In this document: piece by piece, positions 18,538 through 53,139 of the stretch
Layout: the number at the start of each line of letters is the position of its first letter
Numbering within the stretch: position 1 is the first letter of the stretch
Origin: an uncultured Eubacterium sp.
Lineage (GTDB): Bacteria > Bacillota > Clostridia > Lachnospirales > Lachnospiraceae
DNA length: 64,000 nt
Direction: 5' to 3'
NCBI GenBank assembly: GCA_910585745.1
Contig: CAJUFM010000003.1
Span: 1 to 64,000 of the forward strand
Program-made: the position numbers and the translations under genes
The notes under the pieces: model-generated
Told to the model about the DNA's origin: nothing
Databases searched by the model: none
The model's input: only the letters and a program-made list of their open reading frames with translations

Positions 18538-19310
18538 ATACTCTACGGGAAATATATGAATATCGGACCATGATTATCAGCCTGATTCGAAGAGATCTAA
18601 GAGGACGTTATAAGGGATCGGCATTAGGATTTGCCTGGACCTTTTTGAATCCACTGCTGCAGTTAGGCGTGTATACGGTAGTATTTTCGATTATTATGCG
18701 AGCCGGTATCGAAGACTATTATTTGTTCTTATTTGTGGCATTGATTCCGTGGCTGTTTTTTAGTACTTCGGTGTCAGCCGGCGCCAGTTGCGTTATGGCG
18801 CAGAAGGAAATGGTAAAAAAGATATATTTTCCCAGGGAGGTACTGCCCATCGCTCATGTTACCTGTCAGCTGGTTAATATGCTTCTCAGTTTTGTCGTTG
18901 TATTTGCTGTGCTGCTTTTATCTGGCAAGGGAATCTCCCTGCAGGCATTGTTATATCTTCCCATTGTGATCGTGGCGGAATATTTTCTTGCTATCAGCAT
19001 AACTATGATCGTCTCAGCGGTGACAGTGTATCTGCGGGATTTGGAACATGTTCTTGTGATTCTTACGATGGCGTGGCAGTTTTTGACTCCGGTGATGTAC
19101 TCCATTGATATGGTGCCGGAAGAGTTGCGCTCTATTTTTAACATAAATCCCATGACCCCGATCATAGTGGCATACCGGGATATTTTGTATTATAAGCGTC
19201 TGCCTGAGATCGGGAATCTGCTTCATGGATTTGTGTTTAGTACGATTTTATTAGTAATTGGCTGGCTGGTCTTTGGAAGACTGAAAAAACACTTTGCGGA
19301 GGAGATGTAA
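18534..19310 (+). CDS. wzm: ABC-2 type polysaccharide export permease (Wzm/TagG-like)
   Basis: ~6 TM helices; ABC-2 family pattern; ATGA overlap with upstream gene. Confidence 0.8.
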   Translation: MNTLREIYEYRTMIISLIRRDLRGRYKGSALGFAWTFLNPLLQLGVYTVVFSIIMRAGIEDYYLFLFVALIPWLFFSTSVSAGASCVMAQKEMVKKIYFPREVLPIAHVTCQLVNMLLSFVVVFAVLLLSGKGISLQALLYLPIVIVAEYFLAISITMIVSAVTVYLRDLEHVLVILTMAWQFLTPVMYSIDMVPEELRSIFNINPMTPIIVAYRDILYYKRLPEIGNLLHGFVFSTILLVIGWLVFGRLKKHFAEEM

Positions 19311-30001: not shown

Positions 30002-31444
30002 ATGAAGGGGATAAAGTTAAAAAATGCCATGAAAATGACTGCATTTTTGATTGTAGTTGTATTGTTATTAAATGTGCTTTCAGCAGTATTTATACCCAAA
30101 CAGAAGAAGAGCATGACAAAATATAATGGGGAGTTAACGCATTTTGATCTTTTTTATGAAGAACCACGTAATTCGCTGGACGTCATTTTTTTGGGATCAT
30201 CGCACATATATTCAGGAATCTCTCCGATAGAGATGTGGAATACTTATGGTATTGCAGGATATAACTGTACGTCCTCCTCACAATGTGCGTACAAGTCCTA
30301 TCATTTTCTGCTGGATATCTTTAAATATCAGAAGCCGAAAGTAGTTGTATTTGATTTATTGTCATTATTTATAGATGAGACCAATGATGAGATATCCAAC
30401 CGCTCAGCTCTAAATTATATGAGATTTTCCCCCAATTTTTTGACAACGGTACATCATTCGATGAACAAGAAAATTGGAGAGACAATGGAATCTTATATTT
30501 TTCCTATATTAAGATATCATTCCCGATGGGAGGAACTGTCCCAGGTGGATTTTGGTATTAAAAAGCAGCGTGACTGCGCAAAGGGCTATGATATGCGCTA
30601 TGGTACAAAATGTATGGTGAAGTTGACCGAAGATCAATTTTCTTTTTTGAGGGAACAGCCTACGGATAAGGCTGCTCCCATTGTGGAAAAATCTGCTGGG
30701 TATATCCGGAATATGGTCGAACTGTGCAGAAAGAATGGAACGCAAATGGTATTTATTAAGACTCCTGTCTCAGATTATACCCATGAAAAGGGTAAAGCAA
30801 TGCAGAAATTTGCGGAAGAGTGTGGCGTGGAGCTGATTGATTATAATCGGAAATGGAATGAATTAGGGTTAGATTACAGAGTAGATTTTTTGGATACTGT
30901 TCATTTGAATCTTAATGGAGCAAAAAAACTGACGAAGTGTCTGGGGCAGACACTGGTGAATGACTTTGGCATGCCGGATCATCGGGGAGAGGCAGACTAT
31001 AGCAGCTGGGATAAGGATTACAGCACCTATCAGGCAGAAACCCATGCGCTTGAACTGCAGGAATGTAATGAATTATCAGGGTATCTTGAATTGGTTCAAA
31101 GGGAAAACTATGTTTTGTTGTACGCCGGAAATGTTTCTCATGTCAATGATAGTGTAAGGGATATATTGGGACTTCTGCCACTGGAGCAGGAGAGGATCCA
31201 GTATGGTGTTTTGGACATAAGTGATAAAAAGGAAAGAGTTCACAATGCAGGCAATGGGAAGATGCGATACGATATCAGGGATGTACGCTGTGAGATCAGC
31301 GCAGAAAATGATTATAGAATTCGCCTGTTGGGAAAAAATGTTGTCCAGGGCGAGAATGGATTTTATCTGGGCGTATTTGATAAAAAACTGAACATCGTGG
31401 CCGATGCCATAAAAATATTAAATGGTCAGATTCTGCGGGAGTAG
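30002..31444 (+). CDS. Membrane-anchored SGNH/AlgX-AlgJ-like partner of the MBOAT (extracytoplasmic O-acetyltransferase)
   Basis: N-terminal TM anchor, block-I-like VIFLGSSHIYSG, ~480 aa, directly downstream of the MBOAT as in PatA/PatB pairs. Confidence 0.5.
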   Translation: MKGIKLKNAMKMTAFLIVVVLLLNVLSAVFIPKQKKSMTKYNGELTHFDLFYEEPRNSLDVIFLGSSHIYSGISPIEMWNTYGIAGYNCTSSSQCAYKSYHFLLDIFKYQKPKVVVFDLLSLFIDETNDEISNRSALNYMRFSPNFLTTVHHSMNKKIGETMESYIFPILRYHSRWEELSQVDFGIKKQRDCAKGYDMRYGTKCMVKLTEDQFSFLREQPTDKAAPIVEKSAGYIRNMVELCRKNGTQMVFIKTPVSDYTHEKGKAMQKFAEECGVELIDYNRKWNELGLDYRVDFLDTVHLNLNGAKKLTKCLGQTLVNDFGMPDHRGEADYSSWDKDYSTYQAETHALELQECNELSGYLELVQRENYVLLYAGNVSHVNDSVRDILGLLPLEQERIQYGVLDISDKKERVHNAGNGKMRYDIRDVRCEISAENDYRIRLLGKNVVQGENGFYLGVFDKKLNIVADAIKILNGQILRE

Positions 31445-31484: not shown

Positions 31485-32249
31485 CTACCATGAAAGCTTT
31501 CCACCATCGACTCCGATGGTAGAACCAGTAATAAAACGTGAGGCTTCACTGAGAAGAAATGCTGTCAGACTGGCAACATCGCATGGCTGCCCTAATCCTA
31601 AATATTGCCTTGCCATAATGATTTCAGCCTCTTTTGAGCCTTCTCCCTTTTCCAAAAAGGAATCATAGATGTCTGTTTTAATGAATGCTGGTGCCACTGT
31701 ATTTACTCTTATATGCTTATTTGCCAGTTCTTTTGCCATACACCGGACGGCTGCATCCATGGCTGCTTTGGAAGCGCAATATGCTGTCTTGCTGCTGTTT
31801 CCCTGTATGGAGGACGTAGAAGAGATCCCTACGATGTTGCACCCCGTTTCTGAAAATCTTTTTCTGGCAGTGATGCACCGGCACAATTCAACAAATGAAT
31901 AAAAATTGATCTTCATGACCTGATCTAAAATATCTGGTTTGATCGTCTTAAATGGTCTCGAACTGGTGATTCCTGCACTATGGACGAATCCGTCTAATGG
32001 ACCGCGTTCTGCGACAATCTGCTTTATCAGTCCGTCTATTTGATCTAACTTACTTAAATCGGCAGCATAGTAACAAGATTCTTTATTCTGTAAACTTTCG
32101 ATGATTTCTTTTAACTTCTCTTCCCGCCGTGCGACAAGAATGGTTTCCGCTTCCAGCCGGTCCAATAATCTCACCGTCTCTTTTCCGATCCCTGACGATG
32201 CGCCGGTTACTAATATTCGTTTTCCTTTTAAGTCTACCAGATTATACAT
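31485..32249 (-). CDS. SDR-family oxidoreductase (FabG-like 3-ketoacyl reductase)
   Basis: VTGASSGIGKETV cofactor motif; catalytic YCASKAAMDAAVR (YxxxK). Confidence 0.8.
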   Translation of the reverse strand: MYNLVDLKGKRILVTGASSGIGKETVRLLDRLEAETILVARREEKLKEIIESLQNKESCYYAADLSKLDQIDGLIKQIVAERGPLDGFVHSAGITSSRPFKTIKPDILDQVMKINFYSFVELCRCITARKRFSETGCNIVGISSTSSIQGNSSKTAYCASKAAMDAAVRCMAKELANKHIRVNTVAPAFIKTDIYDSFLEKGEGSKEAEIIMARQYLGLGQPCDVASLTAFLLSEASRFITGSTIGVDGGKLSW

Positions 32250-33354
32250 CCTCTGTTTCCTCCCATTCCTCCGGTGTATTAATAATACCCTCTATAAAAC
32301 ATTCCTCTGTTTCGATTATGGGGTAAATATCGGCGCAGTTTATGTTTGTTCCCATAACCCCCCAGGACAATCCCACACCAAAACCTGACATCAGCATCTG
32401 ATATTCCCCTTTACATTCCTTTGCGCCGAATGCATCGCAGAGTGTGAGTGGGACGGCAGCTGCGGATGTATTTCCATATCTATCCAGACATAAGGGCATT
32501 TTTTCTGGTGGTATTCTCAGCCGCTTCTGCAGCTGTTTATGGATATACTTATTCGCCTGATGCATAATATAATAATCGTAGGAGTCTGGAGAAGTATTCT
32601 CACATTCCATATAATATTTTATGGTTTGGGGAACATCACGAATGGTAAATTCAAAAACCCGTGCCCCATCCATCCATGTGTTGTACAAAGTCCGTTTATT
32701 ACCATCTGAAAAAAGCATTGCTTCTTCCGGGGGGGTCAAATTACGGAATCCACCTGCCGGGGCAATAATCGCTTTGTATCCTTCCCCGTCGGAACACAGC
32801 ATTCCGCTCAATTTGTTATCTGGAACTTTCTCAAATAGGACAGCAGCCCCGGCATCACCAAAGAGCATCACAGATGACTTATCCTCTGGATGTACCATCT
32901 TGGACATTGTTTCCCCGACGATTAACAACCCTTTCTCTATATCAGAATTTGCCATAAGTGCGCTTATAATCTGGGCAGAATACACAAATGCAGAACACCC
33001 CAGATTGACATCGAATGCTGCACAATCCCTTTCCAGATGTAAACGTTTATGTAATACACAGGCTGTGGCAGGCCTCCTGTAGTCTGTGGAATGGGCAGAA
33101 AATATCAAGGCTTTAATATCTTCCCGTTTTAATCCTTTTTGCCGTATTAATTCTTCTGCAGCTGCATATCCTAAGTCAGATGCCGTTTGATGCAGTTCCG
33201 TCTTCCTGATCTCCTCTACACCTGTCATTTTCACGAATTTGTCCACATTATCCTGTCCGAATTTATTATAATACTCATTTGCTTTTATTTTTGTTTTGGG
33301 AACAGCACAGGCAATCCCTGTCATTTTTATATTGCTAAAATTGAAATATGCCAT
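32242..33354 (-). CDS. 3-oxoacyl-ACP synthase III (FabH-like KAS III) family protein with a C-terminal extension
   Basis: Active-site Cys context NLGCSAFVYSAQI; C-terminal His/Asn blocks MHQANKYI and GNTSAAAVPL. Confidence 0.75.
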   Translation of the reverse strand: MAYFNFSNIKMTGIACAVPKTKIKANEYYNKFGQDNVDKFVKMTGVEEIRKTELHQTASDLGYAAAEELIRQKGLKREDIKALIFSAHSTDYRRPATACVLHKRLHLERDCAAFDVNLGCSAFVYSAQIISALMANSDIEKGLLIVGETMSKMVHPEDKSSVMLFGDAGAAVLFEKVPDNKLSGMLCSDGEGYKAIIAPAGGFRNLTPPEEAMLFSDGNKRTLYNTWMDGARVFEFTIRDVPQTIKYYMECENTSPDSYDYYIMHQANKYIHKQLQKRLRIPPEKMPLCLDRYGNTSAAAVPLTLCDAFGAKECKGEYQMLMSGFGVGLSWGVMGTNINCADIYPIIETEECFIEGIINTPEEWEETEDV

Positions 33355-33377
33355 TTCAATTTCCTCCTTTGATTGGG

Positions 33378-33599
33378 CTAACCTTCCATATTATTCAGGA
33401 TATCTGCAATGGTTGTATATTTTTTTATCTCTTTTCCAGTAATCTTTTTCCCAAATTCATCTTCAAACATTACGATCAAAGATAGTACTGCCATGGAATT
33501 AAATTCGTCAATGTCTTCCAGATTTGTATCAGGAGTAAGACTTCCTTCATCAACCTCCAACGTATCCTCTAATAATTCTAATTTTTCTTTTTCTGTCAT
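33378..33599 (-). CDS. Acyl carrier protein
   Basis: 73 aa, acidic, phosphopantetheine site IDEFNSMAVLSLI. Confidence 0.8.
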   Translation of the reverse strand: MTEKEKLELLEDTLEVDEGSLTPDTNLEDIDEFNSMAVLSLIVMFEDEFGKKITGKEIKKYTTIADILNNMEG

Positions 33600-33663
33600 T
33601 TTCTTGCCCTCCTATAATTTGATATTTTGTAGTAAAAAGTCTATATGGATTGTCATGATGTTG

Positions 33664-34623
33664 TTAATCCTCATCCAGGGTGCTGGTATCTTTTATTCCG
33701 GATGCATAGTCTCTTATCACATATTGTGGTGCTTTGTTCAGACATAAATAAATTCTTCCTATATATTCCCCGATCAATCCCAATGAAACCAATAAGATGC
33801 CTCCAAGTAATAAAAGAACAGAGATCAGCGAACTCCATCCTGCTGCCATGTTGGGATTTATCAGTTTATTGATGATAATCCCACAGGCGCTGAACATTCC
33901 GATAACGGCGAAAAGAAATCCTAAAAAGGTTGAAATCCTTAATGGTTTTACGGAAAATGTTGTGGCGCCATTGACCCACAATGCAATCAGTTTTTTCAGC
34001 GAATAACCGGAATAACCTTCTTTTCTGGCACGGTGTCCAACATATACGGAAGTAATATTATTTGTCGAACGAAACACCAATCCCGGCAGATATACATACG
34101 GATTTTCATATTTTTGGATCTCATCAATAACAAAATGTTTAACGGCATAGAAACTGCTCCCTTTGAAATCTTTTGGCATATCTGCCATATGTGTCATCAT
34201 GATTCTGTTAAGCCGGGAGCCCCAGTTTCTAAATCTGCTATGCTGCTTTACTTTATATTTGCCATAAACGACATCATAACCCTGATCCAGTTTATCAATG
34301 ATCCTGTAGGTATCTTCGACGGCAATTTGTCCGTCATCATCCAGAGACACAATAATTTCTCCTTTGATATGACGGTATCCTGCAAGCAGAGCTGCATGCT
34401 GTCCAAAATTTCTTGTCAGGTTAATTCCCTGGACATTTGAATATTTCTTTGCCAGCAGCCGGATCTTATCCCAGACATGATCCGGCGAACAGTCATTTAC
34501 CAATATAATCTCATATTCATCTTCTGGGTGGTCTATATTCAAATTCAGGATTTCTTTCACAACATCCTCAATCGTATGTTCGGAGCCATAGCATGGGATG
34601 ACAAAAGATATTAGTCTGCTCAA
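33664..34623 (-). CDS. GT2 polyprenyl-phosphate sugar synthase (GtrB/ArnC/CsbB-like) with C-terminal TM helices
   Basis: VIPCYGSE...LVNDCSPD...NFGQHAALLAGY...SLDDDGQ and two C-terminal TM segments. Confidence 0.8.
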   Translation of the reverse strand: MSRLISFVIPCYGSEHTIEDVVKEILNLNIDHPEDEYEIILVNDCSPDHVWDKIRLLAKKYSNVQGINLTRNFGQHAALLAGYRHIKGEIIVSLDDDGQIAVEDTYRIIDKLDQGYDVVYGKYKVKQHSRFRNWGSRLNRIMMTHMADMPKDFKGSSFYAVKHFVIDEIQKYENPYVYLPGLVFRSTNNITSVYVGHRARKEGYSGYSLKKLIALWVNGATTFSVKPLRISTFLGFLFAVIGMFSACGIIINKLINPNMAAGWSSLISVLLLLGGILLVSLGLIGEYIGRIYLCLNKAPQYVIRDYASGIKDTSTLDED

Positions 34624-35171
34624 GCCTGACTGCCCCCTATTCTGTCCAATAATTCACGGGTCTTTGCAAAATCCTTTCCATCTGCCACCCTTTCATAATA
34701 TGCACATTCAATGCCATTTCGTGTTACTGTCTGTTTCATTTTAATTCCTCTTTTTTCATGGTTGTTGATATGCTTTTTATTTGATAGATAAATTACGTAT
34801 GTAATCTTTTCTAAATGCAGGACTGTCCGGTAAAATTCATCTAATAGCACTTCTGCTTCCATTGCCTCCACAGAACTGCCATTGTTCACCTCTCGTCCTA
34901 CTTCTCCTGTTCTGTCGTGGATATCATAAACACCAATCAGCCCTATTCGCTCTCCTTTTTTGTTCCATACAATAAAGTAATAGTCACCCGGCTCTTTGAT
35001 CTGCCATTGGATAAATTTTTTCTGCTCTTCCAGACTGGAAGCCGGCTGGCCTACCGTTTTACAATTTTTTTCCTCTTTTCTTATCTGATAGGAAAATTCC
35101 ACATCCGCATCTTCTAGTGTAATACTTTTTAGATCCACAAATTTTCCCTGAATTACTTTATCATAAATCAT
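34620..35171 (-). CDS. GNAT-family N-acyltransferase
   Basis: RimL-like GNAT fold pattern (GLIGVYDIHDRTGEVGREV); first gene of the minus-strand operon. Confidence 0.6.
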   Translation of the reverse strand: MIYDKVIQGKFVDLKSITLEDADVEFSYQIRKEEKNCKTVGQPASSLEEQKKFIQWQIKEPGDYYFIVWNKKGERIGLIGVYDIHDRTGEVGREVNNGSSVEAMEAEVLLDEFYRTVLHLEKITYVIYLSNKKHINNHEKRGIKMKQTVTRNGIECAYYERVADGKDFAKTRELLDRIGGSQA

Positions 35172-35446
35172 TTCATGTCCTCCACATTTTTAGTGACAAC
35201 ACAGGGGTTTCAGTATCTCACCTTTGTATCATAAGGTATTTGTATTAAAGATACAAATTGATTTATCTGATGTTATTCAGAACAGGTGAAAGTGTGTGAC
35301 AGCCATAAAATAGTAAAATAGTAAAATCCAAAAATTTATTGCACTTTAAGCCTGCTAATGCTATAATATCTAGATGTACCATTGGGGTAAATTACCTTTT
35401 GACCCCGATATCTTTATAGGTTATTATACAAAGTAGAGATGGAGGT

Positions 35447-36580
35447 TTGACATTGATACCATTTAATAAACCACCTTTTGTGGGAAAAGAACTTAAATAT
35501 ATAGAAGAAGCAGTAAATTGTCATAAATTATGTGGGGATGGGCAGTTCACAAAAAAATGTAATGATTATCTGGAGAAGATTACCAAGTCGGAAAAGGTTC
35601 TCTTGACGACTTCCTGTACCCATGCCATAGAGATGGCGGCGATCCTGGCGGATATAGGACCGGGGGATGAGGTGATCATGCCTTCTTATACATTTGTATC
35701 TACGGCAAATGCTTTTGTACTCCGGGGTGCCAGGGTCGTATTTGTCGATATCAGGCCGGATACGATGAATATAGATGAAACTCTTATTGAAGTTGCAATT
35801 ACCGATAAAACAAAGGCGGTTGTCCCGGTTCATTATGCGGGTGTCAGTTGTGAGATGGACACTATTCTGGACATTGCTGAAAGGCATCAGCTGTCTGTGA
35901 TCGAGGATGCGGCCCAGGGAATTATGAGCACCTACAAAGGAAAAATCCTTGGGACCATTGGGGATTATGGATGTTATAGTTTTCATGAGACGAAAAACAT
36001 CAGTATGGGAGAAGGGGGTGCCCTTCTGATCCGCGATGCTGGAAATGTAGAAAAAGCAGAGATCATCCGTGAAAAGGGGACAAACCGCAGTAAGTTTTTC
36101 CGCGGTGAGATTGACAAGTACTCCTGGGTGGAACAGGGCTCTTCCTATCTTCCCAGTGAGCTCAACGCGGCATATCTCTGGGGAGAATTAGAGGCGGCAG
36201 AAATTATATATGAGGACAGGATGCGCAGCTGGGATACATACTGGGACCAGTTATTCCCATTGGCCGAGAGGGGTTGTATTGAGCTGCCTGTTGTTCCGGA
36301 GCATTGTGTCCATAACGCTCATATGTTTTATATCAAAACAAGGGATTTAGAAGAGCGGACAGAACTGATCCGGCATCTGAAGGAACATGAGATAGGGGCA
36401 GTATTTCACTATATTCCTCTGCATAGTTCCGAGGCGGGAAAACGCTTTGGAAGGTTTCATGGAGAGGACAGGTATACGACGAAAGAGAGCGAGAGACTGC
36501 TGCGTCTGCCGATGTATTATGGCTTAACAGTAGATGAGATTGAGAAGATTACGGATTGCGTAAAACAGTTTTATAAATAA
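35447..36580 (+). CDS. DegT/ArnB-family PLP-dependent sugar aminotransferase (TTG start; an alternative TTG at 35453 has better RBS spacing)
   Basis: N-terminal IPFNKPPFVGKELKYIEEAV...; PLP-lysine region HETKNISMGEGG. Confidence 0.85.
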   Translation: MTLIPFNKPPFVGKELKYIEEAVNCHKLCGDGQFTKKCNDYLEKITKSEKVLLTTSCTHAIEMAAILADIGPGDEVIMPSYTFVSTANAFVLRGARVVFVDIRPDTMNIDETLIEVAITDKTKAVVPVHYAGVSCEMDTILDIAERHQLSVIEDAAQGIMSTYKGKILGTIGDYGCYSFHETKNISMGEGGALLIRDAGNVEKAEIIREKGTNRSKFFRGEIDKYSWVEQGSSYLPSELNAAYLWGELEAAEIIYEDRMRSWDTYWDQLFPLAERGCIELPVVPEHCVHNAHMFYIKTRDLEERTELIRHLKEHEIGAVFHYIPLHSSEAGKRFGRFHGEDRYTTKESERLLRLPMYYGLTVDEIEKITDCVKQFYK

Positions 36581-36604: not shown

Positions 36605-37567
36605 ATGAAGCAGCCAGATGTTTCAGTAGTAATACCATGCTATAATTCAGAAAAATCCATCGGAGAGGTAGTGGAGAAGGTGTCTGCCAAACTTTCTGAG
36701 ATGGGATATACGTATGAGATGGTGCTGGTAAATGATTATTCAAAAGATGGAGCATTTCAGGAGATACATCGTCTTGCCAAAGAACACTCTTTTGTGAAAG
36801 GGATTAATCTGGCAAAGAATTTTGGACAGCACAATGCCATTTTAGCTGGATTTCACTATGTGAGCGGCAGTTATGTGATTGGTATGGACGATGACCTGCA
36901 GACCGATCCTTCACAATTTCCAAAGCTGTTTGATAAGTTGAAGGAAGGCTATGATCTGGTATATGGAACTTATCCCATGGTGAGACAAAGTTTTTTCCGA
37001 CGTCTGGGAAGCCGGTTTAATAATGTGGTTTTGGGCAGGATGATACAACAGCCAAGGCATATCAGAACATCAAGTTTTTGGCTTGCCAAAGCCTATATTA
37101 TAAAAGAAGTTGTTAAATATGAACACTCCTATACAAATCTGCGTGGGTTGTTTTTTCGGACAACCGCCTATATTGCCTGTGTTGAGGTGGAACATTTTGC
37201 ACGAAAATATGGCAGATCCAATTATACGCTCAAGTCACTGATTAAGCTATGGAGCAACTGCATCAATTTTTCTGTGGCGCCGCTGCGAATTTTTCTTCTG
37301 ATCGGAAGTGTTGCTTCTGCAGGAGGTTTTCTAGGAGCATTGATCTTGATCATCAAAAAGATTATGAATATAAATATGTCTCTCGGCTGGCCGTCTTTGA
37401 TGGCAGCAGTTTGTTTCTTTTCTGGTATTATTCTGATTGGTATTGGACTGACAGGAGAGTATATCGGAAGGGCATTTATGTGTATTAATGCTACCCCTCA
37501 GTATGTGGTAAAAGAAGAAGTAAACGTACAGGATGGTATTGATTCCGGGGAGGAAGATGGAGAATGA
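36605..37567 (+). CDS. GT2 polyprenyl-phosphate aminosugar transferase (ArnC-like)
   Basis: VVIPCYNSEKSI...LVNDYSKDG...NFGQHNAILAGF...GMDDDLQ plus two C-terminal TM helices. Confidence 0.8.
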   Translation: MKQPDVSVVIPCYNSEKSIGEVVEKVSAKLSEMGYTYEMVLVNDYSKDGAFQEIHRLAKEHSFVKGINLAKNFGQHNAILAGFHYVSGSYVIGMDDDLQTDPSQFPKLFDKLKEGYDLVYGTYPMVRQSFFRRLGSRFNNVVLGRMIQQPRHIRTSSFWLAKAYIIKEVVKYEHSYTNLRGLFFRTTAYIACVEVEHFARKYGRSNYTLKSLIKLWSNCINFSVAPLRIFLLIGSVASAGGFLGALILIIKKIMNINMSLGWPSLMAAVCFFSGIILIGIGLTGEYIGRAFMCINATPQYVVKEEVNVQDGIDSGEEDGE

Positions 37568-38241: not shown

Positions 38242-39462
38242 TTGAAAAAAATAATGATTCTGGGAGCCGGCGTTTATCAGCTCCCAATTTTGCAAAAAGC
38301 AGCTGATATGTGTGAAGTAATACTTGTAGCGCCGGAGGTTTCAGCGGATTTTAAGGAATACGCAGATAGGGTATACTATCTGGATTTACGACAGCAGGAT
38401 GCGATACTGGAAGTTGCTCAAAAAGAAAAAATAGATGGTATTATTACAGATCAAACAGATATTCCAGTGCGTACCGTGGCTTATGTGGCGGATAAAATGG
38501 GGCTTCCGGGAATTGGTTATGATATGGCGTGCCTTTTTACGGATAAAGGCAGAATGCGCCAAAAGTTGGAGGAGTTAGGAATTCCGGTGCTTCCCAATAA
38601 GACTGTTGGGACATTGGAAGAGGCAGTATGTTTTTTCGATTCTTTGGAAAGTACGGCGATTATTAAGCCGGCGGATAACCAGGGGAGCAGAGGGGTATAT
38701 AAGATTTCATCCAGAATGGAATTGGAGAAATATTTTGCAGCATCATTGAGTGTATCACCGACAGGTCAGGTGGTGATAGAAAAGTATGCAGAGGGCAGGG
38801 AATTTGTGGTTGAAGCAATGTCCCTGAATTATGAATACCGGGAATTGATCCTGGGGGATACCATTTATTTTGACATAGAGAATGCATTTGCGGCAAAGAG
38901 TCGTATTTTTCCGTCAAATGCCGGGGAAGAACTCTGCAAAAAGGTATCTCTGCTTAATGAGAGAATCATAAAAGGGTTCGGTTTAAAACAGGGAATTAGT
39001 CACAGCGAATATGTGATGGACGGTGATGAGATATATTTAATCGAGACAGCGGCCCGTGGGGGAGGTGTATTTATTTCCAGTGATTTGATATATCTTGGCA
39101 CCGGGGTGAATACAGAAGAATTCCTTATTCGCGTAGCACTGGGAGAGTTAAACTGTATGCCGGAGGTGCAAAAAGACCAGTGCCATTGTGGTTACATGGC
39201 GTTTTATCTTCCACAGGGTACAGTAAAATCGATACAAGGTATCGATTCTGTTATAAACTTTGATTTTGTTCATAGAAATATTCTTTATACCATTCATAGA
39301 GGAATGAAGATTGGAGCAATTGAGGACAAAACTTCCCGTTTTTCGATTATTGTAAGTGGAAAAAATGCCGGTGAATTGGAAGAGCATATGGAGAAAATAC
39401 GGGAAACTCTGCAGATTGAGGTGGATACTGAAGAGGGAGTGAAATATCCGATATGGGAATAA
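38242..39462 (+). CDS. ATP-grasp family ligase
   Basis: ATP-grasp architecture (GxGxYQLP N-terminal, central IIKPADNQGSRGVYKI, YLIETAARGGG). Confidence 0.7.
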   Translation: MKKIMILGAGVYQLPILQKAADMCEVILVAPEVSADFKEYADRVYYLDLRQQDAILEVAQKEKIDGIITDQTDIPVRTVAYVADKMGLPGIGYDMACLFTDKGRMRQKLEELGIPVLPNKTVGTLEEAVCFFDSLESTAIIKPADNQGSRGVYKISSRMELEKYFAASLSVSPTGQVVIEKYAEGREFVVEAMSLNYEYRELILGDTIYFDIENAFAAKSRIFPSNAGEELCKKVSLLNERIIKGFGLKQGISHSEYVMDGDEIYLIETAARGGGVFISSDLIYLGTGVNTEEFLIRVALGELNCMPEVQKDQCHCGYMAFYLPQGTVKSIQGIDSVINFDFVHRNILYTIHRGMKIGAIEDKTSRFSIIVSGKNAGELEEHMEKIRETLQIEVDTEEGVKYPIWE

Positions 39463-39806
39463 AAAATAAGATAGGGGGAAGTGTTTTTGCTTTGTTGGCA
39501 ATAACACTTTTGATACAAAGTTTTAGTTCTGTATTTGTAAAAACAGCGGGAAGATATCCGGTAATGTCAGAAAAATTTTTGCTCTTCTATGGACTTGCAC
39601 TAGTTTGTCTCGGGATTTTTTCTATCATGTGGCAGTTTTTGCTGGAGCGCATTCCACTGACAACAGCATATTTAAGAAAAGGAATTTCTTATATATTGGT
39701 TCTCGCCTGGTCCGTATTGATTTTTCATGAAAACATCACATGGAATAATATTTTGGGAAGTGTGATAATTATTATAGGAGTTGTAATTAGCAGTTATGAT
39801 CATTGA
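39453..39806 (+). CDS. SMR/EamA-like 4-TM protein (ArnE-like flippase subunit)
   Basis: 117 aa, four TM helices, ATGA-type overlap with neighbours. Confidence 0.6.
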   Translation: MGIKNKIGGSVFALLAITLLIQSFSSVFVKTAGRYPVMSEKFLLFYGLALVCLGIFSIMWQFLLERIPLTTAYLRKGISYILVLAWSVLIFHENITWNNILGSVIIIIGVVISSYDH

Positions 39807-40131
39807 ATTTATCCTCGCTTTTGGTGCAACCATAATAGCCGCTGTATCACAGCTGTTCTTAAAAAGTTCAGCGAATCAAAAACATAGTGGCTTTATTAAG
39901 AAGTTTTTGAATTTTAAAGTTATTTTTGCCTATGGATTATTATTTTTGTCTACGGTTTTTAATGTTTTTGCTTACCGGACACTTTCATTAAAATACCAGC
40001 CTATGATTGACTCCACAGGGCTGATCTGGGTTACTATACTGGCAGCTGTTTTTATAAACGAAAAGCCTTCAAAAATAAAGATCATTTCTATTTTGGTGAC
40101 ATTGGCCGGAGTGGTGATTTACTGTTTGTAA
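39796..40131 (+). CDS. SMR/EamA-like 4-TM protein (ArnF-like flippase subunit)
   Basis: 111 aa, four TM helices, paired with the previous gene. Confidence 0.6.
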   Translation: MIIEFILAFGATIIAAVSQLFLKSSANQKHSGFIKKFLNFKVIFAYGLLFLSTVFNVFAYRTLSLKYQPMIDSTGLIWVTILAAVFINEKPSKIKIISILVTLAGVVIYCL

Positions 40132-40438: not shown

Positions 40439-41404
40439 ATGTATAGTAACGAAAATTCATTGGCAAAACGTATCAACACGTCAGAAATATGTTTGTCGTA
40501 TGATCAGTTATGTAAGAGGCTGCTGGCAAATAAGCAGATTCTGGCATGGATCCTGAAAGGCTGTGTGGCTGAGTTTGCGGAGTGCAGTATGCAGGATATC
40601 GCAGAAAAATATATTGAAGGCTGCCCTGGCAAAACAACGGTTTCCTTATATCCAGATGAACGTAGTGAGTTTGTTGAGGGTGCAGTGACGGAAGATAGTA
40701 CGATGCTGGAAGGAACCGTTGCCTTTGATATACACTTTAAAGCAATTAAGCCGGATTCTGATACATTTGTTTCATTTATTTTCAATATAGAAGCGCAGAA
40801 AAATTTTTACCCGGGCTACCCATTGATAAAAAGAGGAGTCTACTATGGCAGCAGGTTGATTTCATCCCAGTGGGGAACTGTATTTTCAAATTCACACTAT
40901 GAAAAGATGAATAAGGTGTATACGATCTGGGTGTGTACAGATCCGCCGCGATACCGAAGGAATACTATTGTGAGTTACTCTTTGGAGCCGCACGATCTGG
41001 CCGGGAAAACAAAGGAAAAGAAGGAAAATTACGATCTGATAACCGTTGTCATGATCTGTCTTGGCAATTCGGGCGATAAAAATTATAAAGGCCTGCTAAA
41101 GATGTTAGGTGTACTTTTGAAGGAGGACATGCCTGCCGCGGAGAAAAAAAGGATATTGCAGGAGGAGTTTTCGATTATTTTATCAACCAGTATGGAAAGA
41201 GAGGTGTCGCAAATGTGTGATCTGGGGATTGGTCTTTGGAAAGAAGCCTGGGATGAAGCGAAGTATGAGGATGTCTGTAACCTGATGGAGGTTACTGGCT
41301 GGGATATGGAAAAATGTATGGATATCTTGAAAATACCAGAAGAGAAAAAGGATTTTTTTGGCATGAAAGCGGTAAATGGAAAGAAGGAACTGGTACTGGG
41401 TTAG
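40439..41404 (+). CDS. Rpn-family recombination-promoting nuclease / putative transposase (PD-(D/E)XK, Transposase_31-like)
   Basis: Core FDIHFKAIKPDSDTFVSFIFNIEAQKNF (D...E.Q motif), ~320 aa, flanked by AT-rich non-coding DNA. Confidence 0.5.
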   Translation: MYSNENSLAKRINTSEICLSYDQLCKRLLANKQILAWILKGCVAEFAECSMQDIAEKYIEGCPGKTTVSLYPDERSEFVEGAVTEDSTMLEGTVAFDIHFKAIKPDSDTFVSFIFNIEAQKNFYPGYPLIKRGVYYGSRLISSQWGTVFSNSHYEKMNKVYTIWVCTDPPRYRRNTIVSYSLEPHDLAGKTKEKKENYDLITVVMICLGNSGDKNYKGLLKMLGVLLKEDMPAAEKKRILQEEFSIILSTSMEREVSQMCDLGIGLWKEAWDEAKYEDVCNLMEVTGWDMEKCMDILKIPEEKKDFFGMKAVNGKKELVLG

Positions 41405-41622: not shown

Positions 41623-43440
41623 ATGAAGATAAAATTATCCAACTATGTAGCACAGTTTTTAGTGGACCATGGGATTGATACAGTGTTTACTGTGACAGGT
41701 GGCGGTGCCATGCACCTGAACGACGGGCTGGGGCACCAGGAAGGACTGCACTGTGTCTATCAGCACCATGAGCAGGCGTGTGCCATCGCTGGTGAAGCAT
41801 ATGCTAGAATGCATAACAAAATTGGCGCTGTTTGTGTGACCACGGGACCAGGAGGGACCAATGCCATTACCGGTGTGGTAGGAGGATGGCTGGATTCCAT
41901 CCCCATGCTGGTGATCTCCGGCCAGGTCCGCTATGATACTACGGCGAGAAGCACGGGCCTTGGGATCCGGGCGATGGGAGACCAGGAATTTGATATCTGT
42001 AAGGCCGTGGACAGTATGACGAAATACTGCCAGATGGTGATCGATCCTCTGGATATCCGATATTGTCTGGAAAAGGCGCTGTATCTGGCCCAGATTGGAA
42101 GACCGGGGCCATGCTGGCTGGATATACCGGTAAATGTGCAGGGAGCATTTATTGAGACCGAAGAACTTCGTTCTTTTGATCCGGCAGAATGCGTTGCAGA
42201 AGTTCCGGCAAAGCCATCGGAGGAAACCATAGATACGATCATTGAAAAGATCAAACAGGCAAAGCGTCCGGTGATCAATGCCGGAAACGGAATCCGGATC
42301 TCCGGCGGTTATGAGGATTTCTGCCAGATGGTGGACAAGCTGAATATCCCGGTAGTGACCGGCTGGAACAGCATTGACCTGATCGCGGATGCGCATCCCT
42401 TGTATGTGGGCCGGGGTGGTATCATGGGAGACCGGGCAGGAAATTTTGCGATCCAGAACAGTGATCTGGTACTTTCCCTTGGAAGCCGTCTGAGTATCCG
42501 CCAGGTGGGGTACAATTATAAGACATGGGCGAGAGAGGCTTATACCATCGTAGTGGATGTGGACGGTGAGGAGCTGAAAAAACCTACGATTCATGTAGAC
42601 ATGCCGGTATGTGCGGATGTGAAAAATGTGATGCAGATGATCAATGAGAAGCTTGGGGATACAAAGCTGGACACAGATCCCTTCTGGCTGGATAAATGCG
42701 ATCACTGGAAAAAGACTTATCCTGTTGTTCTGCCGAAACATTACGAGCAGAAAGGGCTGGCCAACGTCTATGCATTTATTAAGGAAGTCAGCAGAGTCCT
42801 TCCGGAAGATTATGTGACGGTGGTCGGAAATGGTTCCGCCTGTGTGGTGGGAAGCCATGGTTATGAGATCAAAAAGGGACAGAGATTTATTATCAATTCG
42901 GCCATCGCATCCATGGGATACGATCTGCCGGCTGCTATTGGTGCCTGCGTAGCGGAGGGGGGCAGAGAGCTGGTGTGCCTGAGCGGCGACGGAAGCATCC
43001 AGATGAATCTTCAGGAACTACAGACGATTCAGACCAATAAACTGCCTATCAAGATCTTTGTCATCAACAACAATGGGTATCATTCTATTCGTCAGACACA
43101 GACCAATTTCTTTGGAGAACCTTTTGTGGGAATCGGGCCTCAGAGCCATGACCTGGAATTTCCGGATATGAAAAAAATCGCTTATGCCTATGATTATCCA
43201 TTTTTCCGCTGTGAGAGCAATGACGCGCTGGAGGAGACAATACGGCAGGTTTTCGCCACAGAGGGAGCAGTGATCTGTGAGATCATGGTCTCCACGGATC
43301 AGAACTTTGAGCCAAAGTCTTCTACCAAACGGCTGGAGGATGGCACACTGGTATCACCGCCGCTGGAGGACCTGGCGCCATTCCTTGACAGAGAGACATT
43401 CTTAAAAGAGATGATTATAGATCCGGTTTCGGAGGAATGA
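41623..43440 (+). CDS. Thiamine-diphosphate-dependent enzyme (acetolactate-synthase-like fold)
   Basis: N-terminal TPP-enzyme pyrimidine-binding pattern GGGAMHLNDGL...HEQACAIAGEAYAR; GDG-type TPP motif CLSGDGSIQMNLQEL. Confidence 0.75.
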   Translation: MKIKLSNYVAQFLVDHGIDTVFTVTGGGAMHLNDGLGHQEGLHCVYQHHEQACAIAGEAYARMHNKIGAVCVTTGPGGTNAITGVVGGWLDSIPMLVISGQVRYDTTARSTGLGIRAMGDQEFDICKAVDSMTKYCQMVIDPLDIRYCLEKALYLAQIGRPGPCWLDIPVNVQGAFIETEELRSFDPAECVAEVPAKPSEETIDTIIEKIKQAKRPVINAGNGIRISGGYEDFCQMVDKLNIPVVTGWNSIDLIADAHPLYVGRGGIMGDRAGNFAIQNSDLVLSLGSRLSIRQVGYNYKTWAREAYTIVVDVDGEELKKPTIHVDMPVCADVKNVMQMINEKLGDTKLDTDPFWLDKCDHWKKTYPVVLPKHYEQKGLANVYAFIKEVSRVLPEDYVTVVGNGSACVVGSHGYEIKKGQRFIINSAIASMGYDLPAAIGACVAEGGRELVCLSGDGSIQMNLQELQTIQTNKLPIKIFVINNNGYHSIRQTQTNFFGEPFVGIGPQSHDLEFPDMKKIAYAYDYPFFRCESNDALEETIRQVFATEGAVICEIMVSTDQNFEPKSSTKRLEDGTLVSPPLEDLAPFLDRETFLKEMIIDPVSEE

Positions 43441-43441
43441 C

Positions 43442-45055
43442 TTATTGGGTGTTTAATTCGTCATATAATAAGATGTTTTTTTCATAGATGAGAATTTTAT
43501 AATCTTTATACTCCTTGATCTCTGAGGTGGCAAGGTAATATTTATCATCAATGGCCTCATCATCTGGAGCGACGAGAATAAAGCATCTGCCAGGGTGCTT
43601 CCCAACATCATAGTATGAGCGGGAGGTCATCCAGTAGTAAGGATAGGAGGGCGTGATGATATAAGAGACGAGTTTAATCTCCCCGTTGGAAAGAGCCATA
43701 TACTTATATGAATTCCAGAAGGTGGAAAAGCCATAATTAAGGTCATTTTCTTTCAAAAAATCGATTAACGTCCCTTCTTCCTGGTCGACTTTGTATTCGT
43801 TGCGGATGGGCAGCACGGTTTCGGTCATGTAATTGAGGTGACCGCATAAAACGATAATCGTTGTGACTGCATAAATAAATCCTTCAAAATATTTACCTTT
43901 TGCTTTGATTAGGTCCGTAAGCAATATGGATGTAAACACGATATTGTGCCAGAATACGAGTTCGTAATATATAATATTGCTTGCATTTGTAAACAGCATT
44001 GTATATAAAAGGAGAAAATTACTGATAAATGCATAAATTGTGTAGAATCTCCAAAATGGTTTTTTTACCTTTTTGTATCGGAGAATCATCCAAACAGGAG
44101 AGACTATCGCGCAGAGGAACATGACAATAAGGTACATGCCAGAGGTGATACCAGAGAGAGATACCAGTTCTTTTTCCCCTGTCGCATAATAAAAGCGGAG
44201 GATGCTTGGAATAAGTTTATTAAAATTTTCAGTTAGTTTTTCCATACTTACAAAAGAAACAGAGCCACTGATGGATTCCAATGTGAGAATCTTTGACAAG
44301 GCTGTGTAACCGGTCACTCCAAGAACTGTCCCGATGATGGTCAATACCAGAAGTATGTTCTGTTTTTTGTTTTTGAGAACAAGCTCGATACGAAACTGGT
44401 TTTCAATATATGAAAACACGGGAAATGAAACGACAATCGGCAGGGTAAAAAGAAATATGCTTTTCATGCCTTTTATGCTGCATAAAAAAATGAGGATAAA
44501 CCAAACAATATAGAGAAGGGGAAGATAATTACGGCGTTCTTCCTGCGCCGCCTGTGAAAAGAGCAACCGGTATATCAGAAGCATTAGAAGAAGATCCCAA
44601 ATGATCTGATATGTATAGGCTGCCTCATAAAATGTTTCCCAATAGTGCATCATGGGAAGAGTCAGCATGAGAATAGAAAGCAGAGCAGCGGTATACCGGT
44701 TTTTTCCAGACAATGTATGGTGATAAAAATAAAAAATCAAGACAATGGCAGCCAATACTAAAAGAATTACGGTCAATTCCCTGCACAACAGCCAGTCCTG
44801 ACAAAATAGCCTTAATACCAGAACGATCAGTTCCGGAGAAAATATGAGGATTCCTGTGGTATAGCAGAAACCATCTGGGAAAAACTGGCGGGTTTTGATC
44901 TGTTCGTCAGCCATGAGCAGCCAGTATGCCATATCTGAAGTAAAGATGGATCTTGTACAGTACAAAATATAAAACAGGACAGCGGATATGCTGAAAACCG
45001 TCATTATAAATAATAAAAGTTTACGTTTTGAAAAGCTTCTTCGTTTTGGATGCAT
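43442..45055 (-). CDS. Polytopic membrane protein with C-terminal soluble domain; putative GT-C-type glycosyltransferase
   Basis: ~12 predicted TM helices in the first 400 aa, then a ~130-aa hydrophilic tail; context next to the UbiA/GtrA module. Confidence 0.45.
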   Translation of the reverse strand: MHPKRRSFSKRKLLLFIMTVFSISAVLFYILYCTRSIFTSDMAYWLLMADEQIKTRQFFPDGFCYTTGILIFSPELIVLVLRLFCQDWLLCRELTVILLVLAAIVLIFYFYHHTLSGKNRYTAALLSILMLTLPMMHYWETFYEAAYTYQIIWDLLLMLLIYRLLFSQAAQEERRNYLPLLYIVWFILIFLCSIKGMKSIFLFTLPIVVSFPVFSYIENQFRIELVLKNKKQNILLVLTIIGTVLGVTGYTALSKILTLESISGSVSFVSMEKLTENFNKLIPSILRFYYATGEKELVSLSGITSGMYLIVMFLCAIVSPVWMILRYKKVKKPFWRFYTIYAFISNFLLLYTMLFTNASNIIYYELVFWHNIVFTSILLTDLIKAKGKYFEGFIYAVTTIIVLCGHLNYMTETVLPIRNEYKVDQEEGTLIDFLKENDLNYGFSTFWNSYKYMALSNGEIKLVSYIITPSYPYYWMTSRSYYDVGKHPGRCFILVAPDDEAIDDKYYLATSEIKEYKDYKILIYEKNILLYDELNTQ

Positions 45056-45218: not shown

Positions 45219-46082
45219 ATGTACAAATATCTTAAGCTACTACGTGTAAAACACTATATTAAAAATTTTCTGATATTTTGCCCTGCTTTTTTTGGAAGAA
45301 CGTTTTTTTATGGAAATGCAATTCTTGAATGTGGCATTGCTTTTTTGACCTTTAGTTTTTTGTCTTCTATTGTCTATATTATAAATGATATTCATGATCT
45401 GGAAAAAGACAGACTTCATCCTGAGAAGTCGAAACGTCCTATTGCATCTGGTGCGGTTTCCCAAAAACAGGCATGGACGGTTGCCCTTATACTTGGCGGT
45501 CTGGTAGTGCTGTTGCAGGTCTTTACTCACTTGCTGGAATGGCAGACCTGGCTTGTGCTGATATTTTATTTTGTGATTAATATGGCATACAGTATATGGG
45601 GATTGAAAGGATATCCTTTGGTTGATGTATTTGTCTTGGCTTTGGGGTTTGTACTGAGGATTATGTTTGGATCAGTCTGCACTGGGATAGAGGTGTCCCA
45701 ATGGCTGTATCTGGTTGTCTTTTCCGGTTCACTGTTTATGGGATTTGGAAAGCGTAGAAATGAATTGCTCCAGTGTCAGGATACGACGAGGGCGGTGTTA
45801 TCAAAATATAACAAAGAGTATCTGGGCAGATGTCTGTCGGCCTGTATGACATTAAGTATTGTATTTTACTCATTTTGGTGCATGGAACGGGATCAGATGT
45901 ACGGAGACAAGTATTATTTGTACACGGTTCCAGTTTTTGTATTTATTATGCTGAAATATTCCTATGATATTGAAAATGATGAAGACGGGGATCCAACTAA
46001 CGTTATTTTAAATGATAAAATCCTGATTTTATGTGTGCTGATTTTAGCTGTTCTTTTTGCAGTGCTAATGTATTTGGTATAA
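45219..46082 (+). CDS. UbiA-family polyprenyl-phosphate 5-phosphoribosyltransferase (Rv3806c/DPPR-synthase-like)
   Basis: Motif YIINDIHDLEKDRLHPEKSKRPIASG matches the NDxxDxxxD-RxHPxKxxRPxAsG signature of DPPR synthases; 8-9 TM helices; C-terminal DGDPTNVILNDKILIL. Confidence 0.65.
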   Translation: MYKYLKLLRVKHYIKNFLIFCPAFFGRTFFYGNAILECGIAFLTFSFLSSIVYIINDIHDLEKDRLHPEKSKRPIASGAVSQKQAWTVALILGGLVVLLQVFTHLLEWQTWLVLIFYFVINMAYSIWGLKGYPLVDVFVLALGFVLRIMFGSVCTGIEVSQWLYLVVFSGSLFMGFGKRRNELLQCQDTTRAVLSKYNKEYLGRCLSACMTLSIVFYSFWCMERDQMYGDKYYLYTVPVFVFIMLKYSYDIENDEDGDPTNVILNDKILILCVLILAVLFAVLMYLV

Positions 46083-46096
46083 AGGGGATTCTAGAC

Positions 46097-46660
46097 ATGA
46101 ATGTTTATGATTTTGACGGAACTATATATCGTGGGGACAGTACAGTTGATTTTTATTTTTTTTGTTTGTTCCGCTATCCTTTGATGATATTCAGTGTACC
46201 CGTCCAGTTTTGGGGAATGGTATCTTATAAAGCGGGACGGATCGATAAGACGCAGATGAAAAGTTATTTTTTTTCCTTTTTAAAAAAGGTAAAGAAAAAA
46301 GATGAAATAATACAGAAATTCTGGAAAAAAAATATAAAAAAGATCTACGCCTGGTATCGGAATCAGCAAGAGGAGGATGATGTTATTATCTCGGCCTCGC
46401 CGGAATTTTTGCTACAGCCGGTGTGCAACCAGCTGGGAATAAAAAATCTCGTTGCCTCAGAGGTTGATCTTTCTACAGGAAAATTTCTTGGAAAGAATTG
46501 TTACGGTGAAGAAAAAATCCGCAGATTTCAGGAAGCCTATGGTGCCAAGGCTGAAATTCAGAACTTTTATTCGGATTCCATATCAGACCTGCCCATGGCG
46601 CAAATGGCAGCAAAGGCATTTTTTTGCAGAAAGGGAGAAAGAAAAAGATGGGAAATATAA
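46097..46660 (+). CDS. HAD-superfamily phosphatase (start at ATG 46097, MNVYDFDGTIY)
   Basis: HAD motif I DFDGT at the N-terminus; AAAGGGG RBS; the track's earlier start overlaps the UbiA gene. Confidence 0.6.
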   Translation: MNVYDFDGTIYRGDSTVDFYFFCLFRYPLMIFSVPVQFWGMVSYKAGRIDKTQMKSYFFSFLKKVKKKDEIIQKFWKKNIKKIYAWYRNQQEEDDVIISASPEFLLQPVCNQLGIKNLVASEVDLSTGKFLGKNCYGEEKIRRFQEAYGAKAEIQNFYSDSISDLPMAQMAAKAFFCRKGERKRWEI

Positions 46661-49200: not shown

Positions 49201-49216
49201 ATCATTAGCTGGAGGT

Positions 49217-52034: not shown

Positions 52035-52056
52035 TAAAGCTTACGGAGGGCGATAC

Positions 52057-53115: not shown

Positions 53116-53139
53116 AAAAGAAAAGGAAAGGAATATACT

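Follow-up and report, generated by a model that had tools for sequence, protein, structure and literature searches.

The DNA analysed here, referred to as the window, is a stretch of 64,000 nucleotides from an uncultured Eubacterium sp. of the Lachnospiraceae (contig CAJUFM010000003.1, positions 1 to 64,000). It contains a cassette of five minus-strand genes, which encode a GNAT-family N-acyltransferase, a family 2 glycosyltransferase (GT2), an acyl carrier protein (ACP), a KAS III enzyme (3-ketoacyl-ACP synthase III) and a short-chain dehydrogenase/reductase (SDR). With moderate confidence, this operon can be read as a self-contained module that N-acylates an amino sugar and passes it into a glycosylation route based on a lipid carrier. 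The support, which is computational throughout, comes from gene integrity, domain families, catalytic motifs, the orthology of a neighbouring transaminase to WecE, the profile affinity of the GNAT to FdhC, and conserved gene co-occurrence. The acyl group is probably C4 (3-hydroxybutanoyl), a point on which confidence is lower than for the overall mechanism. The genes of the cassette are as follows.

34620-35171, minus strand: GNAT, FdhC-like, predicted N-acyltransferase; 183 aa; PF13302 at 30.9 bits (cutoff 25.4)
33664-34623, minus strand: GT2a, ArnC/GtrB-like, predicted polyprenyl-phosphate sugar synthase; 319 aa, TTG start; PF00535 at 1e-28
33378-33599, minus strand: dedicated ACP; 73 aa; PP-binding domain PF00550 at 42.1 bits (cutoff 20.8)
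32242-33354, minus strand: KAS III, FabH-like condensing enzyme; 370 aa; PF08545 at 64.8 bits (7e-18) and PF08541 at 88.5 bits (3e-25)
31485-32249, minus strand: classical SDR, predicted 3-ketoacyl-ACP reductase; 254 aa; adh_short_C2 at 176 bits (1e-51) and KR at 64 bits (2e-17)

Open reading frames (ORFs) lie at these positions in the order described in an earlier reading of the DNA (the original prediction), and the Pfam matches agree with it; KAS III has both of its expected domains, ACP_syn_III (PF08545) and ACP_syn_III_C (PF08541), above cutoff. The stop of the GNAT gene overlaps the start of GT2a by 4 bp, and the KAS III and SDR genes overlap by 8 bp; elsewhere the genes are separated by 64 bp and 23 bp. 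Ribosome binding sites of the GGAGG type precede the GNAT, ACP, KAS III and SDR genes, and GT2a has AGGGGG. These co-directional genes overlap or are closely spaced and form one operon. The cassette had been described as fused to the GtrB-like synthase; this holds at the level of the operon, where the two are translationally coupled, but there is no protein fusion. The gene order is conserved: it recurs at 80-97% protein identity in independent metagenome-assembled genomes (MAGs) of Eubacterium, Lachnoclostridium and Eubacteriaceae (loci L007-L010), and the identical GNAT protein is indexed in 139 blocks of a metagenome collection. The five ORFs are real genes, not chance ORFs.

The ACP, KAS III and SDR retain the motifs needed for catalysis. 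The phosphopantetheinylated serine of the ACP is present; it lies in EFNSM, aligns with Ser36 of E. coli AcpP and with the DltC serine, and does not vary among the carrier proteins aligned from the fetched loci. The residue before it is Asn in this clade and usually Asp elsewhere. The Cys-His-Asn triad of KAS III is likewise in place: GCSAF, HQAN and GNTSAA match the corresponding catalytic motifs in E. coli FabH, a comparison based on motif alignment and not on residue numbering, as the FabH reference sequence is one residue short. Every KAS III gene of the related loci keeps these motifs unchanged. The SDR has a TGASSGIG cofactor motif, a serine run (SSTSS) and YCASK, which supply the catalytic Ser, Tyr and Lys. 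Its role as a 3-ketoacyl-ACP reductase is predicted from gene context; a search of the PDB gave no entry at 1e-35 or better.

Folds and catalytic residues are the same as in the housekeeping proteins AcpP, FabH and FabG, but these three cassette proteins fall under the housekeeping NCBIfam equivalog cutoffs and are sited in a glycan locus. The ACP reaches at best 31.7 bits against the AcpP models (cutoffs 65-71), and the SDR 163.9 bits against the FabG model TIGR01830 (cutoff 297.75). KAS III scores 222 bits against NF006829 (cutoff 249) and 191 against TIGR00747 (cutoff 292); because it is under these FabH cutoffs, KAS III is classed on its sequence as a specialised paralog and not as the initiator of type II fatty acid synthesis (FAS II). 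Its best solved relative is 4efi, named just 3-oxoacyl-ACP synthase. In contrast to housekeeping FAS II, the elongation-cycle enzymes FabZ, FabI and FabF are not present beside the cassette, and the ORFs between 31 and 45 kb showed no homologue of FabD, FabZ, FabI or FabF.

A genome scan with the GNAT gave 32 loci, which were annotated by BLAST against the window proteins. The close set consists of 23 species-level loci in which the GNAT is at least 45% identical; these are found in Lachnospiraceae, Ruminococcaceae, Saccharofermentans, Fibrobacter and Treponema. ACP, KAS III and SDR accompany the GNAT in all 23, which together with the intact motifs bears out, computationally, the proposal that they are private machinery for making a short 3-hydroxyacyl group. 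A GT2a-type GT2 is present in 19 of the 23 (directly adjoining in 13), the transaminase WecE (64-96% identity) in 17, and a pair of EamA-type proteins in 12. The acyl-building genes beside the GNAT are sometimes more numerous. Extended factories (L001, L003, L005, L012-L014, L017-L019, L022, L028 and L029) add an AMP-ligase, a DltC-like carrier of 76-80 aa with an LLDSFD motif, a second KAS III with a GCCGF active site and a metallo-beta-lactamase (MBL)-fold protein. More distant loci show the same additions, along with extra SDRs and FkbH. The extended factories also contain a protein of 255-275 aa, which has weak GNAT-like Pfam matches (E 0.006-0.14) in two of the three scanned and none in the third.

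The distant set consists of nine proteobacterial and acidobacterial loci (L030-L038; Azospira, Castellaniella, Pusillimonas, Rhodocyclaceae and Acidobacteriota) in which the GNAT is 21-35% identical. An ACP directly adjoins the GNAT in eight of the nine, FkbH is found in the locus in seven, and all nine have a DegT transaminase. These FkbH/ACP/GNAT/DegT loci are a candidate genetic basis for N-glyceroyl amino sugars. In 2017 the basis of N-glyceroylation was called 'a major challenge', the enzymes being unknown (PMC5378307).

The GNAT family is small and specific, since an exhaustive profile search of 1.84 billion proteins retrieved just 349 representatives at E 1e-10 or better. Close homologues of the GNAT number 152, and NCBIfam holds no model that matches it. 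The top PDB match of the family profile (A1) is FdhC (5kta/5ktc; E 1.6e-7), and the next match is at 0.015. An AlphaFold (AF2) model of the GNAT (mean predicted local distance difference test score, pLDDT, 91.7) has a template modelling (TM) score of 0.75 to FdhC 5ktc, the highest among the matches listed. The title of 5ktc gives the product as 3-[(R)-3-hydroxybutanoylamino]-3,6-dideoxy-D-galactose, and FdhC was crystallised with coenzyme A (CoA) bound. In E. coli O103 and Salmonella O55, FdhC is given as the 3-hydroxybutanoyl transferase (PMC4869667). The guess that the GNAT places 3-hydroxybutanoyl on an amino sugar is thus independently supported by the closest solved relative of its profile; transfer to a dTDP-amino sugar is predicted from the adjacent WecE and ACP/KAS/ketoreductase (KR) genes.

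The donor would be a carrier protein. Three natural fusions (P0295, P0297 and P0307; 781-785 aa) consist of a GNAT domain, a carrier-like linker with a DSL motif and an adenylation domain; the linkers match the PP-binding family at 17.8 and 20.3 bits, slightly under cutoff. The constant company of an ACP, the FkbH-ACP-GNAT triads of the distant loci and these GNAT-carrier-adenylation fusions point to a family that takes its acyl group from a carrier-protein thioester.

The sugar substrate is suggested by the operon that diverges from the cassette. This operon and the other genes with possible roles in the pathway or its alternatives are as follows.

35172-35446, no strand: divergent intergenic region between the GNAT and WecE operons; 275 bp; promoter-like hexamers on both strands
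35447-36580, plus strand: WecE orthologue, dTDP-4-amino-4,6-dideoxyhexose transaminase (TIGR02379, NF008687)
36605-37567, plus strand: GT2b, second ArnC-like GT2; 43% identical to GT2a; ArnC model at 176 bits
37564-38223, plus strand: left-handed beta-helix (LbH) N-acyltransferase of the NeuD/PglB/VioB family (VioB/PglD); TIGR03570 at 111 bits, under the cutoff of 160.8
38242-39462, plus strand: ATP-grasp ligase (ATP-grasp_4 and LAL_C2), possible aminoacyl decoration step
39453-40131, plus strand: two small EamA-type four-helix proteins (117 and 111 aa; PF00892), candidate ArnE/ArnF-like flippase
25684-28404, plus strand: YfhO-like polytopic membrane protein (PF09586), candidate GT-C glycosyltransferase
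43442-45055, minus strand: 537-aa polytopic membrane protein, hydrophobic, with no Pfam match; alternative candidate for the terminal transferase
28570-31444, plus strand: membrane-bound O-acyltransferase (MBOAT), then a weakly GDSL/SGNH-like protein of 480 aa; pair ending 40 bp from the SDR gene

The transaminase exceeds both WecE models (TIGR02379, 640.9 against a cutoff of 434.85; NF008687, 638.1 against 375) and matches E. coli WecE (4piw) at E 1.2e-168, versus 6.6e-41 for ArnB; against the ArnB model it reaches 189 bits, under the cutoff of 631. The divergent operon had been called Arn-like. Its pathway logic is indeed Arn-like, but the aminotransferase is an orthologue of WecE, the enzyme of dTDP-4-amino-4,6-dideoxy-D-galactose (dTDP-Fuc4N), and not of ArnB; the amine is therefore expected to be a dTDP-4-amino-4,6-dideoxyhexose and not 4-amino-4-deoxyarabinose (Ara4N). 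Hexamers in the divergent region (for example plus 35399-35427 and minus 35391-35363) are consensus matches only, and in a promoter and terminator scan such sites were no more numerous than in shuffled sequence. The terminator scan gave no convincing terminator 3' of the SDR gene, and an Rfam scan of the whole 64-kb window gave zero matches.

The proposed link to a lipid-phosphate-linked sugar is upheld by GT2a, which is coupled to the GNAT and aligns over its full length with ArnC and GtrB: residues 4-305 align with ArnC 9-312 (9hwj, 9.5e-41), and GtrB (5ekp) is matched at 4.9e-35. GT2a begins with a GT-A domain, which bears a DDD motif, and has two hydrophobic helices at its C-terminal end. 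It scores 162.7 bits against the ArnC equivalog NF007986, under the cutoff of 529, and by its sequence appears to have the ArnC architecture with a different substrate. The LbH protein, ATP-grasp ligase and GT2b probably make up a parallel route to an undecaprenyl phosphate (Und-P)-linked sugar that shares WecE and the flippase. YfhO genes come after the cassette in L003, L007-L010 and L014, and a 31%-identical homologue of the 537-aa membrane protein is close to the cassette in L011.

The following pathway can be proposed. Housekeeping enzymes, including FabD, would phosphopantetheinylate and malonylate the private ACP, giving the extender for KAS III. KAS III would condense malonyl-ACP with a short acyl-CoA primer, most simply acetyl-CoA, to acetoacetyl-ACP, and the SDR would reduce this to 3-hydroxybutanoyl-ACP. 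WecE would convert dTDP-4-keto-6-deoxyglucose, supplied from elsewhere in the genome, to dTDP-4-amino-4,6-dideoxy-D-galactose or its gluco epimer. Next, the FdhC-like GNAT would take the 3-hydroxyacyl group off its ACP thioester and place it on the sugar's 4-amino group; this N-acylation may also pull the transamination forward, as formylation does in the Arn pathway. The translationally coupled, ArnC-like GT2a would transfer the N-acyl sugar to undecaprenyl phosphate, the ArnE/F-like EamA pair would flip the lipid-linked sugar, and a GT-C (the YfhO-like protein or another large membrane protein of the locus) would attach it to a cell-wall glycopolymer.

The ACP-KAS-SDR triad is also found away from this GNAT family. 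A homologue search started from KAS III, and so independent of the GNAT, found KAS III proteins of 57-62% identity in KAS-SDR-ACP triads beside PglD-type LbH, DegT, RmlA/B and Wzx/Wzy genes (L039-L041 and L045). The Pseudobutyrivibrio triad (L039; KAS 59% identical) sits with FabD and the carboxyltransferase of acetyl-CoA carboxylase; this neighbourhood and the conserved Asn of the decarboxylative triad support extension with a malonyl unit. The locus L045 adds a FabA-like dehydratase and a nitroreductase-fold protein. A closer KAS (76% identical; 8001-9113 of L044) belongs to an ACP-KAS-SDR triad within a NeuB/CMP-synthetase locus for nonulosonic acid. The GNAT of L044 was considered as a member of the cassette GNAT family and ruled out (hhalign probability 2.7%). 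N-3-hydroxybutanoyl groups are chemically known on sugars of both the nonulosonic-acid and the Wzx/Wzy-locus classes. From its occurrence beside different N-acyltransferases and in a nonulosonic-acid locus, the triad appears to behave as a portable generator of short 3-hydroxyacyl-ACP that pairs with different N-acyltransferases.

Several points weigh against the N-acylation module as proposed. The GNAT is merely 18-19% identical to FdhC, and Foldseek E-values do not separate FdhC from SpeG or PseH; because they do not discriminate GNAT structures, the sequence-profile result was given more weight. The donor of FdhC is, we presume, an acyl-CoA (3-hydroxybutanoyl-CoA), and its acceptor, dTDP-Fuc3N, is a 3-amino sugar, while the partner of the cassette, WecE, makes a 4-amino sugar; donor and regiochemistry are thus extrapolated here from an analogous enzyme. 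No enzyme of the ArnC/GtrB type is known to use a dTDP-sugar. The window yielded no FabD, phosphopantetheinyl transferase, rmlA or rmlB; the nucleotidyltransferase and dehydratase encoded at 51-53 kb are those of a CDP-glucose route. Instead of C4, the chain could be C5, C6 or branched, because the primer preference of a KAS III cannot be read from sequence. Finally, the closest KAS III proteins from outside the clade pair with LbH acyltransferases, not with GNATs.

The last two points each lead to a different explanation. If the module is as proposed but primed with butyryl-, propionyl- or branched acyl-CoA, the product would be a C5-C7 3-hydroxyacyl group; such acyl-CoAs may be available in a gut or rumen anaerobe of the Clostridia. 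KAS III enzymes vary widely in primer preference, this one falls under the FabH cutoffs with a best solved relative of unspecific name, and relatives make longer or more complex chains with extra KAS, SDR, AMP-ligase and FabA-like genes. However, 3-hydroxybutanoyl is by far the commonest short 3-hydroxyacyl N-substituent on bacterial amino sugars, and FdhC, the closest solved relative of the GNAT, handles a C4 group; a longer primer is unlikely, yet deserves to be kept in view. It is quite unlikely that the 3-hydroxyacyl-ACP is instead used by the VioB/PglD-type LbH enzyme of the window, with the GNAT acting as an acetyl-CoA-dependent, WecD-like enzyme. Four loci with the nearest outside KAS III proteins do have adjoining PglD_N/Hexapep acyltransferases, and the Flavobacterium psychrophilum model likewise includes a PglD homologue (PMC6519341). 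But it is the GNAT and not the LbH gene that shares an operon with the ACP, KAS and SDR, and an LbH acyltransferase is present in just two of the 23 GNAT loci, in contrast to the full attendance of the triad; L007 keeps the five-gene cassette without it. The FkbH-ACP-GNAT triads and the fusion proteins also tie the GNAT family to carrier proteins. The LbH enzyme was rejected as the user of the acyl-ACP on operon membership and occurrence.

By analogy with DltC/DltB/DltD, the acyl-ACP might alternatively feed the MBOAT/SGNH-like pair, which would O-acylate an extracytoplasmic polymer; the pair is probably a polymer O-acylation pair in its own right. DltB-type MBOATs draw their substrate from a carrier protein, and the pair, which lies so close to the SDR gene, stays adjacent to the cassette in L009-L011. 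Against this, it is transcribed convergently, within the YfhO operon, an MBOAT is found in just five of the 23 loci, and the coupling of GNAT, GT2 and WecE would be left unexplained; on these grounds the supply of acyl-ACP to the MBOAT was rejected, and we regard it as very improbable. That the cassette is a set of membrane-lipid fab paralogs lying in a polysaccharide locus by chance can be given hardly any credence. All three families do include housekeeping FAS II enzymes. However, all three proteins score under the housekeeping equivalog cutoffs, the other fab genes sought at 31-45 kb were not seen, and a generic fab set, which the original prediction had named as a possible refutation, is contradicted by synteny with glycan genes across Clostridia, Fibrobacter and Treponema (WecE and GT2a-type genes at the frequencies given above).

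Returning to the N-acylation module, the close, extended and distant loci can also be read jointly. As a tentative proposal, in which we have less than even confidence, this GNAT family would comprise the first nucleotide-sugar N-acyltransferases fed directly by a carrier-protein thioester. A modular glyco-polyketide system would turn on this family, with exchangeable ACP-based acyl factories all serving a single conserved route of WecE, GNAT, ArnC-like GT2, flippase and GT-C. In this cassette the factory would be KAS III and KR; among the others seen, FkbH would provide glyceroyl, and adenylation-carrier-KAS-MBL sets would build longer chains.

The module resembles several known systems in part. 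FdhC (Acinetobacter nosocomialis O12, E. coli O103 and Salmonella O55) has the same GNAT fold of about 185 aa, an acceptor that is a dTDP-amino-6-deoxyhexose made by a DegT-family transaminase, and a short 3-hydroxyacyl donor group; it differs in the position of the amino group. The O103 and O55 clusters have, to our knowledge, no private ACP, KAS or KR. The Arn pathway (ArnB, ArnA formyltransferase, ArnC, ArnD, ArnE/F and ArnT) has the same sequence of transamination, N-acylation, GT2-dependent transfer to Und-P, a small-protein flippase pair and a GT-C. It uses UDP-Ara4N and a formyl group, whereas the module would use a dTDP-4-amino-4,6-dideoxyhexose and an ACP-built acyl group, and no ArnD-like deacylase was seen in this window. 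Lipid A is not the expected target because the genome has Clostridia-type relatives. The CsbB/GtcA/YfhO and GtrA/GtrB/Gtr(type) systems likewise decorate wall or teichoic polymers by means of three parts, a GT2 Und-P-sugar synthase, a small flippase and a polytopic GT-C, and have a YfhO counterpart in this locus. CsbB- and Gtr-type systems carry plain Glc or GlcNAc from UDP-sugars; the cargo here would instead be a tailor-made N-acyl amino-dideoxy sugar. In Bacillus anthracis, antABCD supplies an aminotransferase, an N-acyltransferase and a GT2, as in the module, for a Gram-positive route to a 4-(3-hydroxyacylamido)-4,6-dideoxyhexose. It differs in drawing its acyl group from 3-hydroxy-3-methylbutyryl-CoA, which leucine catabolism provides, in using an LbH acyltransferase and in having neither ACP nor KAS III.

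The nearest precedent for the acyl supply is the O-polysaccharide (O-PS) locus of F. psychrophilum, where wfpC-wfpG (KAS, ACP, KAS, KR and a PglD-type acyltransferase) are predicted to make N-3,5-dihydroxyhexanoyl-Qui2NAc4N via an O-PS-specific ACP (PMC6519341). In both cases, each a prediction, an ACP, KAS and KR of a glycan locus would feed an N-acyltransferase acting on a 4-amino-6-deoxy sugar. The F. psychrophilum locus differs in having two KAS genes, giving C6, versus a single KAS III, which would give C4, in the cassette; it also uses an LbH acyltransferase, a UDP-sugar and a Wzy-dependent O-antigen, where the cassette would use a GNAT, a dTDP-sugar and an Und-P monosaccharide route. 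Because a glycan-specific ACP/KAS/KR set had already been predicted there (PMC6519341), the cassette is a new combination of known parts and does not amount to a new kind of system; these parts also include FdhC-type GNATs, ArnC/GtrB synthases and three-component extracytoplasmic glycosylation. The novelty lies in pairing an FdhC-like GNAT with an ACP of its own, in coupling the pair to a dTDP-fed Und-P monosaccharide route, and in the spread of the cassette, with variable acyl factories, through gut and rumen anaerobes. Literature on ACP, KAS and 3-hydroxybutanoyl in O-antigen and nonulosonic-acid contexts, and on WecE, ArnC and YfhO in Lachnospiraceae, yielded no description of this system.

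Other features of the window concern glycans as well. It encodes four polyprenyl-phosphate GT2 synthases (ArnC, PgfS or DPM-like): the two described above at 33664-34623 (minus strand) and 36605-37567 (plus strand), and two more at 54505-55458 and 58898-59605 (both plus strand). There are at least five large, probably polytopic membrane ORFs (25684-28404, 43442-45055 on the minus strand, 46624-48693, 49166-51220 and 55473-57638), only one of which has a Pfam match (YfhO). Such a density of extracytoplasmic glycosylation routes appears unusual for a single locus. An acetolactate-synthase-like thiamine diphosphate (ThDP) enzyme (41623-43440, plus strand) is 98% identical in three MAGs, its neighbours being mostly 85-96% identical. 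RfbF, RfbG and RfbH of the CDP-4-keto-3,6-dideoxyhexose route are encoded downstream (51258-54480, plus strand), and for this reason the ThDP enzyme could be YerE-like and involved in branched-chain sugars. A UbiA-family prenyltransferase gene and an overlapping HAD phosphatase gene (45219-46660, plus strand) resemble the decaprenyl-phosphoribose synthase and phosphatase of the arabinan pathway of Actinobacteria, here in a Clostridia-type genome. A 321-aa ORF (40439-41404, plus strand) with a weak match, under cutoff, to a PD-(D/E)XK transposase family (PF12784) is taken as an insertion, because merely about 160-280 bp separate the EamA pair from the ThDP gene in L008 and L010. At 18534-22337 (plus strand) lies a Wzm/Wzt ABC transporter whose Wzt carries a carbohydrate-binding domain at its C-terminal end; next comes a 612-aa protein with DUF4214 and a methyltransferase domain. 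This arrangement suggests chain-terminating methylation as in ABC-dependent O-antigens.

3-Hydroxybutanoyl, glyceroyl and dihydroxyhexanoyl N-acyl groups are common immunodominant decorations of bacterial surface sugars, and their genetic origin is mostly unassigned. If the module acts as proposed, it would provide a searchable rule by which a private ACP, KAS III, KR and FdhC-like GNAT beside DegT/WecE predict such decorations from genomes, and a small set of enzymes with which N-acylated deoxy-amino sugars could be produced. Arn-like Und-P sugar chemistry would, moreover, reach into gut and rumen anaerobes, which are abundant and whose wall glycans have hardly been studied. Should the joint reading of the loci be right as well, the Und-P-linked N-acyl-Fuc4N that derives from a dTDP-sugar would count as a new lipid-linked donor, and gut and rumen Clostridia, Fibrobacter and Treponema would display diverse N-acyl 4-amino-4,6-dideoxyhexoses on their surfaces.

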